The notes below the pieces were generated by a model. That model searched no databases. It was not told where the DNA came from and was given only the letters and a program-made list of their open reading frames with translations. Below are positions 6,631 through 9,774 of a stretch of DNA of 44,591 bases, piece after piece. Numbering within the stretch: the stretch's first letter is position 1; every line of letters starts with the position of its first letter. The translations under genes and the position numbers were made by a program. Origin of the DNA: a virus; IMG/VR virus record IMGVR_UViG_3300001528_000183, positions 1 through 44,591 of that record. One strand, written 5' to 3'.

Positions 6631-7887
6631 ATGAGTGAAATCACAGAGCCGATTGTACTGGACAAAACGGCAAAGGAAATTGTAGAAAAGCTGCATACAC
6701 AGAATGTATTGCTGAATGCAATCGCAGGTATGCAGATGGAAGAAATCGGGAGCCTGAAGGAGATCGGACGCATCGTAGCTTCCGGAAATGCAGAGAAAGT
6801 TTTCAACATCGGAGATCAAATCATTGTACCATGGACAGATGTTGCCGCAAACAAAACATATGAGATGCCATTTGGCGTGCGCAAGTTCATCGAGGCGGAG
6901 CTGGAAGACGGCGAAAAGGTACCAGGCATGGTAATCCAGGCAGACTATGCGCATCCATTTGGTGTACAGTTCTCACAGTACCAGGCATTTTACCGCGTAA
7001 AAACGGCAGAGGAAGACGGTACCAACGGCGGAAAAGATCTTGCACCAGGAACTTACTGTGTGCAGATGGGAGCAACCTGGGGAACTTACGTGAAAAAGGA
7101 TGCATACTTTAATTTTACACTCACACAGGCAGTTCCAGTAGGAGGAATCCTGGAGGGTTTCCATAACGCACCAGATCAGGAAGCATCGAAGTGGACGGTA
7201 AGATCTTTTATCAACAACACAGCAACAAATCCAATCGAAACTGTAAAAGTAGCAGAGGGCAAGGCCGGAACACTTCTCGGAACACTGCTGCCATCAAACA
7301 GCAGCGAGTTAAACTTACACCGTGTTGCTTATGGCAATAACCGATATAGAGACTCTGCGATTAGACAGTACCTTAACAGCGATGCAGCTGCCGGAGCATG
7401 GTGGAATCCACAGCACAACTATGATCGCCCGCCGGATCAGCTGGCAACCAAGGCCGGATTTTTGTCCGGATTTGACGAGGAGTTCTTATCCCTGATCAAG
7501 CCAACAAAGGTAGTAACGGCTTTAAATACGGTATCAGATGGAGGCAGCACAGATAATCCAGATATCACATATGATAAGTTTTTCCTGCCATCGCTGGAGG
7601 AAATGCACTGTGCACCGCAGATCGCTGGAGAAGGCGAAGTATGGGATTACTGGAAAAGAGCATCACAGTCCAAGACACCGCTTGCCCAGTACGGTACATA
7701 TCCGCAGATGCGAACATTCGCCTTGGAAAACAAGTCAAGCGCTCAGTATGTTCGTTTGCGCAGTGCATATCGCGGCGATGCGTGCATTACGTGGTACGTC
7801 AACGCGAGCGGCGATGTCGGCAGCAATTACGGCGCGATCGGCGCGACGCGCTTCGCCCCAGCTTGTGTAATAATCGGCCAGAAATGA
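6631..7887 (+). CDS. Distal tail fibre / receptor-binding protein, DGR target 1 (C-terminal variable region)
   Basis: 418 aa. The last 127 nt are a mutated copy of the TR at 8403..8526. The C-terminus ...RLRSAYRGDACITWYVNASGDVGSNYGAIGATRFAPACVIIGQK fits C-type-lectin-fold DGR targets. Confidence 0.85.
   Translation: MSEITEPIVLDKTAKEIVEKLHTQNVLLNAIAGMQMEEIGSLKEIGRIVASGNAEKVFNIGDQIIVPWTDVAANKTYEMPFGVRKFIEAELEDGEKVPGMVIQADYAHPFGVQFSQYQAFYRVKTAEEDGTNGGKDLAPGTYCVQMGATWGTYVKKDAYFNFTLTQAVPVGGILEGFHNAPDQEASKWTVRSFINNTATNPIETVKVAEGKAGTLLGTLLPSNSSELNLHRVAYGNNRYRDSAIRQYLNSDAAAGAWWNPQHNYDRPPDQLATKAGFLSGFDEEFLSLIKPTKVVTALNTVSDGGSTDNPDITYDKFFLPSLEEMHCAPQIAGEGEVWDYWKRASQSKTPLAQYGTYPQMRTFALENKSSAQYVRLRSAYRGDACITWYVNASGDVGSNYGAIGATRFAPACVIIGQK
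7741..7867 (+). repeat. DGR variable region 1 (VR1)
   Basis: Aligns to TR 8403..8526. Outside the AAC tract, 8 of 10 differences fall at TR adenines. VR1 carries one extra codon relative to TR. Confidence 0.9.
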
Positions 7888-7893
7888 TGCAAT

Positions 7894-7919
7894 CCAGGGG
7901 CGCACACCTGCGCCCCTGG
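7894..7919 (+). promoter_or_regulatory. Hairpin downstream of VR1 (11-bp stem ccaggggcgca/tgcgcccctgg, loop cacc)
   Basis: Perfect inverted repeat read from the sequence. It starts about 20 nt after VR homology ends. An analogous hairpin follows VR2. Confidence 0.75.
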
Positions 7920-7952
7920 GTGTATGAGCAAAAAAAGAAAGGATAAAAGCAA

Positions 7953-8381
7953 ATGTCATCTACGATACCAGCGCGGAAGAGAAATACTGGCGAGAAGAAA
8001 TGGAATTTGCTGATTTGCGCAAATGAATTAACCTGCTACACAATCAAAATCTGCACAAATCAGCAAATCTTTTTGCCACAGTATCAGGGCGCGATAACCA
8101 ATAGCATTATCTATGCAGCAACGATGATTTTTGTGAGTTGCTGGGACGCGAACCAAATCCGAGTAGCCAAGGAAACACCGCCAGAAGAAAGACTTGAGAG
8201 AAAACGCCTGCAAGATCAGGCGATCCGATACTGCAACAGATTGCTTGCGCTTATGCAGATTGCAAAGCGCCTATTCCATCTCAAAGCAAAAAGAATTGAA
8301 TACTGGGGCAGAAACACGATCAACGTCCGAGAAGGCATTAAGAGATGGCAGGAATCCGATAAAGAACGCTACAACGCATAA
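7953..8381 (+). CDS. avd: DGR accessory variability determinant (Avd-like four-helix-bundle protein)
   Basis: 142 aa, helical and basic, lying between target and TR as in BPP-1. The ANEL...IYAATMI...ANQIRV...LLALMQIAKRL pattern resembles the Avd / 23S-IVS four-helix-bundle family. Confidence 0.7.
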   Translation: MSSTIPARKRNTGEKKWNLLICANELTCYTIKICTNQQIFLPQYQGAITNSIIYAATMIFVSCWDANQIRVAKETPPEERLERKRLQDQAIRYCNRLLALMQIAKRLFHLKAKRIEYWGRNTINVREGIKRWQESDKERYNA

Positions 8382-8402
8382 GGTAGCAGGGGTGTAGGCT
8401 AT

Positions 8403-8526
8403 GCTCAGAATGTTCGTTTGCGCAGTGCGAATCGCGGCAATGCGTGCAATACGTGGTACGTCAACGCGAGCGGCAATGTCAACAACAACAACGCGATCAA
8501 CGCGAATCGCTTCGCCCCAGATTGTG
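8403..8526 (+). repeat. DGR template repeat (TR)
   Basis: Non-coding copy of VR1 and VR2. Read in the VR frame it gives AQNVRLRSANRGNACNTWYVNASGNVNNNNAINANRFAP with 12 AAY codons. I count 31 A in the 118-nt core. Confidence 0.9.
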
Positions 8527-8697
8527 CCACTTGAGATACAAAACTGATACATAGTATCAGCGTTTCGAGAGGAGAGACACAAGGAGCCGAATCCCCTGAT
8601 CCGACAAGGATCGAACAACACTGGCATGATGCAAAGGGCTTCGCCGTCACCATGCGGCAAGTGTGCTGCTAAATACATGCGCAGGAAAAAGAAAATC

Positions 8698-9774
8698 ATG
8701 AGGTACGGAAACGATAAAACCGAGAATGAAATAATCGAATCAGTTATAAGCTTTGAAGCGCTATACGAGTCGATGATGAAATGTAAAAAGGGCGTGTTGT
8801 GGAAAAATCAGCCCGCCCACTATTACCTCAACGGCATAGAAGAAACGATAAAGCTATCAGATCAGCTAAGAAACGGAACCTATAAACCGAGAAAGACAAG
8901 AAAAGTTAAAATCACCTATCCAAAACCAAGAGAAGCAGTGGCGAATGCTTTTCGGGACAGGGTGTATCAACGAAGCTTAAACGACAACGTACTATATCCG
9001 GCAATGACAAGATCATTCATTGACGATAACATGGCGTGCCAAAAAGGACGCGGACCAGATGTGGCAATGGACCGTCTGGATGAGTTCCTGCGTCAGATGT
9101 TTCAGAAATATGGGCTAAATTTCTGGATTTTACAAGGTGATGTCCACGGATATTATCCCAACATGTCACACAGCAAGACAGAAAGCCGATTTCATAGAAA
9201 GGTAACAAAGCCAATCTATGAAATGACAACTAATGTTTTACGTGGGCAGTATGAGGGAAGTACCGGATATAATCCAGGATCGCAGATGGTACAAATTGCA
9301 GGAGTTTCGTACTTGGATCCGTTTGATCACTATATGAAAGAACAGCTGCACGTAACGCAATACGAACGATATATGGATGATTTTGTGGACATGAATGCAA
9401 GCAGAGAAGCACTGGAAGACCATCTGAAGAAAATCAAGTGCTATATGGATGCAGAAGAATGCGAGCTGCATCCGAAAAAGACAAGGATCTATCACGTAAC
9501 AGAAGGAATTACATTCCTGGGCTTTAAGCACAGGTTGACGGAAACTGGAAAGGTTATCCGTACAATTGATCCGGATAACGTGAAACATGAGCGCCTAAAG
9601 CTAAGAAGGCAGGTAGCACTTGTAGCCAAAGGAGAAATGAAGAAATCTGAAGTTGAAAACGGGTACAAATGTTGGAAAGCACACGTTAAGAGAGGTAATA
9701 GCACGAAAGTCCTAGAAAGGACCGACAAATATTTGAAGAGTCTATGGAAGGAGTATGGATTGTATGAGATTTAA
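8698..9774 (+). CDS. DGR reverse transcriptase
   Basis: YMDDF (YxDD) catalytic motif and an NPGSQ motif typical of DGR RTs. The track ORF opens at 8626, but the ATG at 8698 follows AGGAAAAAG and leaves 8527..8697 as the TR-RT spacer. Confidence 0.85.
   Translation: MRYGNDKTENEIIESVISFEALYESMMKCKKGVLWKNQPAHYYLNGIEETIKLSDQLRNGTYKPRKTRKVKITYPKPREAVANAFRDRVYQRSLNDNVLYPAMTRSFIDDNMACQKGRGPDVAMDRLDEFLRQMFQKYGLNFWILQGDVHGYYPNMSHSKTESRFHRKVTKPIYEMTTNVLRGQYEGSTGYNPGSQMVQIAGVSYLDPFDHYMKEQLHVTQYERYMDDFVDMNASREALEDHLKKIKCYMDAEECELHPKKTRIYHVTEGITFLGFKHRLTETGKVIRTIDPDNVKHERLKLRRQVALVAKGEMKKSEVENGYKCWKAHVKRGNSTKVLERTDKYLKSLWKEYGLYEI

Follow-up and report, generated by a model that had tools for sequence, protein, structure and literature searches.

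The 44,591-nt stretch of viral DNA that makes up IMG/VR virus record IMGVR_UViG_3300001528_000183 (positions 1–44,591; hereafter the window, numbered from its first letter) contains a diversity-generating retroelement (DGR) whose adjoining components are all found on the plus strand. A first target gene (6631–7887; 418 aa) ends in a variable repeat (VR1, 7741–7867) and is followed by an avd-like accessory gene (7953–8381; 142 aa), a non-coding template repeat (TR, 8403–8526), a structured spacer of 171 nt (8527–8697) and the gene for a reverse transcriptase (RT; 8698–9774; 358 aa). A second target gene (23805–24434, plus strand; 209 aa), with a variable repeat at its 3′ end (VR2, 24314–24423), is located in the early/replication region, and the window thus holds one DGR with two targets 16 kb apart, the second of them non-adjacent. 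From comparisons with related sequences, we consider it very probable that this is a functional DGR of the BPP-1 type, with the order target–avd–TR–RT, carried by a temperate phage with a contractile tail whose hosts are gut Lachnospiraceae. The initial annotation of this DNA had proposed a BPP-1-like array inserted between a tail-fibre gene and the lysis genes; all components are present in that order, and domain matches confirmed the placement between the tail-fibre gene and the genes for XkdX, holin and amidase.

According to the initial annotation, TR nearly duplicates the 3′-terminal part of target gene 1, and the alignment agrees: TR and VR1 (residues 371–413 of the protein) match without gaps at an offset of 662 as far as a 3-nt insertion in the AAC tract of VR1 (7826–7828 in the MAFFT alignment). 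Read in the target frame, TR gives AQNVRLRSANRGNACNTWYVNASGNVNNNNAINANRFAP, with 12 AAY codons, and recounting the 118-nt core (8403–8520) returned the same 31 adenines as before. TR and VR1 differ at 10 positions outside the AAC tract, eight of which are the adenines previously listed (8409, 8430, 8439, 8449, 8475, 8499, 8500, and 8506), the exceptions being G8429>A and T8507>G. Over the VR1 core, 13 of the 15 substitutions are at TR adenines (binomial P = 1.7e-6), as are all 12 substitutions in VR2 (P = 1.5e-7). This third repeat copy, not listed in the initial annotation, which had correctly named target 1, was shown by a repeat search and by a pattern consisting of TR with all adenines written as N; the pattern found three sites in the window (TR, VR1, and VR2) and none in 100 shuffles. 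With the exceptions named, the differences between template and variable repeats are confined to adenines of a non-coding TR, as is characteristic of DGRs. An open reading frame (ORF) at 8401–8547 and the antisense ORFs across TR were treated as spurious.

Evidence for activity was drawn from natural relatives rather than from reads. The A-to-N pattern retrieved four loci that are 90–94% identical (L001–L004), on two human-gut metagenome contigs and two contigs from a metagenome-assembled genome (MAG) of Acetatifactor sp.; these relatives turned up in metagenome and GTDB contigs, the same pattern having no match in IMG/VR, and a megablast comparison of positions 6000–12000 with GenBank phages also gave no match. 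TR is identical in L001 and L003 and has a single C>T change in L002, in genomes that are 90–94% identical overall, and beside this near-unchanged template all VRs differ among the window and L001–L004. When five VRs from the window and its relatives were pooled, 60 of 63 substitutions fell at TR adenines (P about 1e-30), the other three all coming from VR1 of the window; the even spread of substitutions that the initial annotation had named as counter-evidence was not seen. At least one VR is mutated at 26 of the 31 TR adenines. For the deduced products, we examined the 90%-identity clusters holding each target, with 14 usable sequences for target 1 (a fifteenth is frameshifted) and 14 for target 2, and every one of them has a unique VR peptide (14/14 in both cases). 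Columns with at least three residue types number 14 in target 1, all in the VR and none in the upstream 370 columns, and 17 in target 2, 13 of them in the VR and four upstream. The TR codons behind these hypervariable VR columns are AAY codons together with ACG, TAC, and ATC. Taken as comparative evidence, natural populations carry hypervariable VRs beside a TR with no change or a single-base difference.

Both VRs end in the same initiation of mutagenic homing (IMH) sequence, CGCTTCGCCCCAGCTTGTGTAAT, at 7849–7871 for VR1 and at 24405–24427 for VR2 (both plus strand), with a GC-rich start followed by fixed differences from TR; this 23-mer is also common to the VRs of L001, L003, and L004. The corresponding IMH* at the 3′ end of TR (CGCTTCGCCCCAGATTGTG, 8508–8526, plus strand) has A8521 where all VRs carry C, and the sequences diverge after position 8526. 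The last variable TR adenine, 8506, stands immediately ahead of the GC-rich segment, and IMH and IMH* mark the boundary of mutagenesis. In cassettes whose RTs are as little as 52% identical, most of IMH* is still conserved, and its ATTGTG end is invariant.

A GC-rich hairpin follows each target gene on the plus strand. The first (7894–7919) starts 6 nt past the stop codon of target 1 and has a stem of 11–12 bp with the loop CACC, and the second (24446–24467) starts 12 nt past the stop codon of target 2 and has a stem of 8–9 bp with the loop CACT; neither is followed by a run of T. L001 and L003 retain the former, as do L012 and L013, where the stem has compensatory changes, and L004 retains the latter. 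GC-rich inverted repeats downstream of IMH enhance homing in DGRs, although they are not universal. No GC-rich inverted repeat of this kind follows TR, where the hairpin at 8543–8561 belongs to the spacer RNA and has an AT-rich sequence. Loci L014, L015, and L006 show another post-VR hairpin, with a GC stem topped by CCCAYGGA, in the same place as the CACC-loop hairpin; the post-VR element is therefore retained, and its sequence class shifts in distant cassettes. We rejected the reading of the post-VR hairpins as ordinary terminators, since they lack a T-run and a separate terminator-like palindrome occurs at 24506–24548. The latter, a perfect palindrome of 13 bp flanked by A/T-runs, stands in the interval from target 2 to the gene for the replication initiator; it looks like a bidirectional terminator and is not the same element as the DGR hairpin at 24446–24467.

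The ORF downstream of TR contains the NPGSQ and YMDDF motifs pointed out in the initial annotation and matches RVT_1. Its best PDB match is 8ub7 (a 328-aa reverse transcriptase; E 1.5e-11), with group II intron RTs behind at 1e-7, and it aligns full-length and collinearly with Brt from BPP-1 (E 9e-17). Identity is 36% to the RT from nd12 and 31% to those from both nd4 and Lelie; among its homologs, A-biased TR/VR pairs adjoin the RT genes of nd12 and MT835491. The k-mer TR/VR finder that we used was too strict, missing the pairs in the window and in Lelie, and gives positive evidence only for nd12, MT835491, and BPP-1. These matches indicate that the gene beside TR encodes an RT of the DGR lineage. 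As the start of this gene we preferred position 8698 over the ATG at 8626, which was rejected because the 8527–8697 region is 97–100% conserved, as if non-coding, with divergence of the coding type from about 8700.

The 142-aa product encoded between VR1 and TR, noted in the initial annotation as helical and basic, has an isoelectric point (pI) of 9.80 and four helices in the AlphaFold2 (AF2) model, with a predicted local distance difference test score (pLDDT) of 84. A Foldseek search with this model retrieved 2rld and 2gsc with template modelling (TM) scores of 0.81–0.89, and Avd itself (4dwl) with a TM of 0.83; we take 2rld and 2gsc to be structures of the 23S-rRNA-IVP family, close to Avd. 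Likewise, all nine members of this small Avd-like family matched phrog_3206, annotated as Avd protein of DGR (best E 4.5e-10). On the strength of the modeled small, basic four-helix bundle, this ORF probably encodes the Avd accessory protein. Profile searches had been suggested in the initial annotation for both genes; that for the accessory gene was borne out by the PHROG match, and that for the RT found no DGR-RT model among its NCBIfam matches.

The region at 8300–8700, comprising the 3′ end of avd, TR and the spacer, is the most conserved part of the cassette, with 97–100% identity in close relatives vs. 86–96% in the coding flanks. The spacer RNA (plus strand) has a folding z-score of -3.35 and carries the motif ACACAAGGAG at 8577–8586, and a conserved box upstream of TR (GGGGTGTAGGCT, 8389–8400, plus strand) is predicted to pair with spacer positions 8585–8596, enclosing TR. 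For comparison, we fetched distant cassettes with RT identities of 80, 71, 61, 56, and 52%. The four with gene calls show a DUF6273 target, an Avd-like protein of ~140 aa, ~320 nt of non-coding sequence, the RT, XkdX and lysis genes, in differing phage backbones; in the fifth, the unannotated MT835491, the RT has a VR/TR pair with A bias immediately upstream. The alignment of their non-coding sequences shows the conserved box before TR, the largely conserved IMH*, the spacer motif, which is invariant, and three hairpins with compensatory changes. RNAalifold, applied to TR plus spacer in six sequences, predicted 74 pairs, 18 of them with compensatory changes on both sides, vs. 10.5 ± 2.1 in shuffled controls (0 of 500 reach 18) and 3–8 in slid registers. 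In the helices predicted between 8389–8400 and 8585–8596 all cells are paired, with one compensatory pair per helix (helices 1 and 2). A further predicted duplex joins UUGUG at the end of TR (8522–8526) to CACAA in the spacer (8578–8582), directly 3′ of A8521, the first position of fixed difference between VR and TR. Rfam contains no family for this TR-spacer RNA, with only chance-level matches in 7700–9900.

One-codon insertions in the tract templated by (AAC)4 occurred in three independent events, at 7819–7833 in VR1 of the window, at about 2377–2394 in L004 and at about 2070–2085 in L016. The VR2s with one additional codon in L004 (P0148) and L016 (P0154) have five NNC codons each, as expected of an (AAC)5 slippage product after mutagenesis of adenines, and they thus fit RT slippage; the insertion in VR1 of the window requires one additional C>T change to fit the same explanation. 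We found no one-codon deletions in this tract among 28 variants. Slippage of the RT on the (AAC)4 tract would occasionally produce such insertions. Wu et al. (2017) reported 3-nt indels opposite AAC repeats in 7% of DGRs, which they put down to slippage, with 74% of indels lying beside AAC (PMC5758913), and a slippage model is also discussed in PMC12875486. Besides, the target 1 cluster includes a 458-aa sequence (P0142) whose frame is lost inside the AAC tract, with the stop codon read through, which is either a slippage product that is not a multiple of three or an assembly error in the hypervariable region.

Both targets match Pfam DUF6273, and in each the VR forms the C-terminal end of this domain. 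In target 1 this domain is C-terminal (Pfam E 4.8e-16, residues 225–413), and the AF2 model (mean pLDDT 89.8) shows N-terminal helices, a beta-sandwich region and the DUF6273 domain; target 2 consists of the domain (E 6.5e-9) and about 85 extra N-terminal residues. There are at least 2901 clusters of target 1 homologs, and some of the 90%-identity clusters contain thousands of distinct sequences (for example 10311, 5368, and 4417 members), which is the database footprint of DGR hypervariability in a very abundant gut phage protein family. DGR targets display their VR on a C-type lectin or an Ig fold, and the former, for which the initial annotation had proposed a test by structure prediction of the target C-terminus, is a candidate fold here. 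A Foldseek search of PDB with the full target 1 model retrieved neither Mtd nor TvpA nor any other DGR variable protein, and hhalign of target 1 against Mtd was negative. The initial annotation gave 15^12 as the upper bound for the diversity of the target; this figure is wrong, because TR has six further codons containing adenine (CAG, AGT, ACG, TAC, AGC, and ATC), of which ACG, TAC, and ATC vary in nature, and they raise the theoretical peptide count, obtained by enumeration, to 5.3e17 for VR1 and 8.9e15 for VR2.

Several observations weigh against the reading of this cassette as a working DGR of the BPP-1 type. The evidence for its activity is comparative throughout, and VR1 of the window contains two or three changes outside adenines, depending on where the insertion is placed, in addition to the 3-nt insertion, all of which could be drift since the last rewriting. 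The signature [I/V/L]GxxxSQ (PMC7826257) is absent from the RT, which reads PGSQMVQ at 9265–9285 (residues about 190–196) and agrees with it in the G and the Q only, the equivalents of bRT Ile181 and of the Ser being replaced (P for I/V/L, V for S). The Avd-like ORF has no match in Pfam or NCBIfam, with PF05635 undetected and the Pfam matches at lenient E-values being noise; the profile of its family found no match among PDB sequences, and hhalign against BPP-1 Avd was negative. With these sequence and profile searches being negative, the assignment as Avd rests on fold, charge, position and the PHROG match. Finally, the RNA structure was scored on the same six sequences from which it was derived, and the predicted duplex between UUGUG and CACAA is invariant and hence has no covariation support of its own. 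As for the RT, Arg74 (in KPR) and YMDD are conserved, and almost every one of the 120 RT clusters closest to it has PGSQ[LM][IV]Q; the variant motif marks the clade and coexists with clear A-specific variation, so that a large clade of gut-phage RTs carries out adenine mutagenesis without the signature Ile and Ser.

If the element were a relic, VR diversification would be a thing of the past and the differences among VRs would be inherited old variation. In line with this, the changes G8429>A and T8507>G and the 3-nt insertion in VR1 of the window would vanish in a fresh round of canonical homing, and four contigs share one and the same target 2 variant (P0146), which means that rewriting does not go on all the time. 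However, RT, the Avd-like gene, TR, IMH and the hairpins are all intact, and TR plus spacer form the best-conserved block of the cassette. Moreover, the 28 sampled variants, at least 88% identical as proteins, all have different VRs (28/28), whereas the rest of the protein hardly varies, and forms with one additional codon arose independently at least three times. Changes outside adenines and indels in the AAC tract are, besides, known by-products of active DGRs (PMC5758913; PMC12875486), the former being reported in 23% of DGRs (Wu et al., PMC5758913). We therefore regard loss of function as very unlikely. It is even harder to sustain, to the point of being negligible, that the RT belongs to another retroelement, such as a group II intron, a retron or a defence RT, with the repeats produced by gene conversion between paralogous DUF6273 genes. 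The best NCBIfam match is indeed a group II intron RT/maturase (TIGR04416), with weak matches to Drt3a and to a retron RT, and the altered signature motif would agree with this; nevertheless, all scores are far under the cut-offs (88 vs. 300 for TIGR04416, 32 vs. 200 for Drt3a and 14 vs. 235 for the retron St85 RT) and neither a group II intron, nor a retron, nor any other RNA family was found by Rfam in 7700–9900, for which we rejected an intron or retron RT. Likewise, gene conversion does not yield directional substitutions specific to TR adenines, and is thus unsuited to repeats in which a non-coding TR stays unchanged, or differs by one base, in relatives.

Several roles may be considered for the targets. 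The initial annotation held that a distal receptor-binding protein is diversified; the C-terminal diversification and the fibre-type position of the gene were both verified, and the receptor-binding role, which is drawn from that position, is likely. Target gene 1 occupies the slot equivalent to mtd, after genes for Baseplate_J (4242–5402), Tail_P2_I (5380–5964) and a short tail-fibre protein (5998–6615, plus strand; 205 aa), which lies directly upstream and has an N-terminal fibre domain only (phrog_7037, tail fiber protein, E 7.4e-35, residues 3–157; weak Pfam Phage_tail_fib match). Alternatively, target 1 might be no fibre tip at all, and serve instead as an adhesin for mucus or other surfaces or as a decoration protein, comparable to Hoc-like proteins or to the DUF6273 tentaclin. 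Its DUF6273 part matches phrog_10993 (Hoc-like head decoration), the only relative of this domain with a solved structure comes from the N-terminal part of a bacterial IgA peptidase, residues 1–220 have no match to fibre or receptor-binding families, and the published DUF6273 targets are of uncertain role (PMC10743442; PMC11792537). Set against this, the slot directly after Baseplate_J, Tail_P2_I and a protein with nothing but the N-terminal fibre domain is where P2-type tail modules carry the distal fibre and where BPP-1 has mtd, the gene order is kept in L012 and L013, and one BFVD match to target 1 is annotated as a tail-collar fibre protein, so that a role other than fibre tip is unlikely, albeit worth keeping in mind. 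With respect to target 2, the upstream neighbors are genes for a methyltransferase, two tyrosine recombinases and three products without assigned function, and downstream lie those for the replication initiator, VRR-NUC, ParA and ParB; this synteny is kept in L004 and in L009–L011, relatives from several gut samples, including one from a Hadza gut. That target 2 is a non-virion protein, expressed with the replication and maintenance genes, is a speculative proposal to which we give slightly less weight still. If true, diversification by the DGR would extend beyond a tail protein to a binding factor, intracellular or released, of what may be a phage-plasmid, by means of an RT clade lacking the canonical [I/V/L]GxxxSQ.

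By analogy with BPP-1, and drawing on previous works (PMC6182149; PMC5758913; PMC7826257), the DGR could operate as follows. The transcript, from about 8389 to 8697, would fold with the box upstream of TR paired to the spacer, and the 3′ end of TR (UUGUG, 8522–8526) would pair with the invariant CACAA of the spacer (8578–8582). In BPP-1, a short duplex between TR and spacer sets the priming adenosine, Sp A56, beside the first templated base (PMC6182149), which by analogy makes A8582 the candidate priming site. A complex of RT and Avd would then prime the cDNA from a spacer adenosine, possibly A8582, starting at about 8520–8521, and RT would copy TR faithfully save opposite adenines. The resulting cDNA would take the place of VR1 or VR2, with the common IMH and the GC hairpin after each VR as guides. 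In this way, two proteins could have up to 18 codons recoded at the C-terminal end of their DUF6273 domains, namely the 418-aa product of the gene beside the tail fibre, which is probably the distal receptor-binding unit, and the 209-aa product from the early region.

The cassette resembles the mtd–avd–TR–brt system of BPP-1 in its gene order and in its position between tail-fibre and lysis genes, as well as in the adenine-specific differences between TR and VR, the IMH/IMH* pair, the basic accessory protein with the Avd fold and the RT collinear with Brt. A GC hairpin with a 4-nt loop immediately follows the stop codon of mtd too, and in both systems a short TR-spacer duplex is located near the start of information transfer, predicted here and experimental in BPP-1 (PMC6182149). 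The two differ in that the target described here is a DUF6273 protein without detectable sequence relation to Mtd, the RT motif is PGSQMVQ instead of IGSLTSQ, no sequence similarity is detectable between the two Avd proteins and the host is a Gram-positive gut anaerobe. There is also a second, non-adjacent target here; the BPP-1 record, too, annotates a "VR2", in bbp36.

Closer parallels exist in phages nd4 and nd12 (PMC10743442) and in Faecalibacterium phages Lelie and CP11 (PMC11792537), all of them human-gut Firmicutes phages with homologous RTs, one TR and two VRs in two DUF6273 proteins of unequal size, the smaller being essentially DUF6273 alone; population-level variation templated by adenines, with occasional changes at other bases, was reported in those phages. 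Conversely, the VR of the tentaclin from nd4 and nd12 is near the gene's 5′ end and followed by Ig domains, whereas both VRs are at 3′ ends in the window, and both targets of nd12 lie within about 2 kb of TR (PMC10743442), in contrast to the 16 kb that separate target 2 from the cassette. The large target described here also differs in having 418 aa, a tail-fibre position and no Ig domains, and the RT in belonging to the clade with the variant motif. The catalogue of Wu et al. (PMC5758913) likewise includes indels at AAC repeats, substitutions outside adenines, non-adjacent targets in the same prophage, GC inverted repeats after IMH (34%) and poorly conserved, basic Avd proteins (pI 9.5 ± 0.7); in that catalogue, however, in-frame indels are nearly all from the non-phage Lineage 4, as opposed to the three events of one additional codon in a phage DGR found here. 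DUF6273 targets, pairs of a large and a small target, non-adjacent phage targets, AAC indels, non-A changes and hairpins after IMH are already published (PMC10743442; PMC11792537; PMC5758913).

The window is a circular assembly, with bases 1–75 repeated at 44517–44591; a near-repeat with a 132-nt period (89%; 44385–44459) is part of the ORF spanning both ends, which has the position of the tape measure. Genes for sheath, tube, GpU, gpD, gpV, gpW, Baseplate_J and Tail_P2_I identify a contractile-tailed phage, and the close relatives are on contigs binned in an Acetatifactor MAG. Downstream of the RT are a gene for a small XkdX-family protein (9873–10100, plus strand; Pfam Phage_XkdX E 1.8e-12, over its cut-off), found in the same place in L012–L015, and the lysis genes (10261–12004, plus strand) for a holin (10261–10710; Phage_holin_4_1 E 3e-32) and an amidase (10772–12004; Amidase_3 E 2.4e-11). 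The window also encodes a replication initiator, a VRR-NUC nuclease, ParA and a ParB-like protein (24788–28525), two tandem tyrosine recombinases (20050–21958) and a serine recombinase (12132–13511, minus strand), a set that could correspond to a phage-plasmid lifestyle or to an integrative phage with partition genes. On the minus strand, positions 13662–15044 encode a 460-aa protein with DUF4041 and T5orf172/MUG113 (GIY-YIG-like) domains, a relative of which is labelled SNIPE in precomputed Pfam matches; this is a defence-type nuclease gene, beside recombinase and repressor genes.

No natural system for protein diversification is more powerful than DGRs, which are abundant in gut phages. The element described here leaves the knowledge of DGRs unchanged, being a further example of a system that is well described in gut phages. 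It is, at the same time, a well-documented natural example in which one TR serves two targets, with a near-invariant template and dozens of distinct natural VRs, to which it adds recurrent gains of one codon in the AAC tract, a template RNA that is conserved and structured and for which a priming duplex is predicted, and a clade of RTs that mutate adenines despite lacking the textbook motif. It would thus be a reasonable model for the mechanism of DGRs in Gram-positive gut phages and for the role of the small, non-adjacent DUF6273 target.

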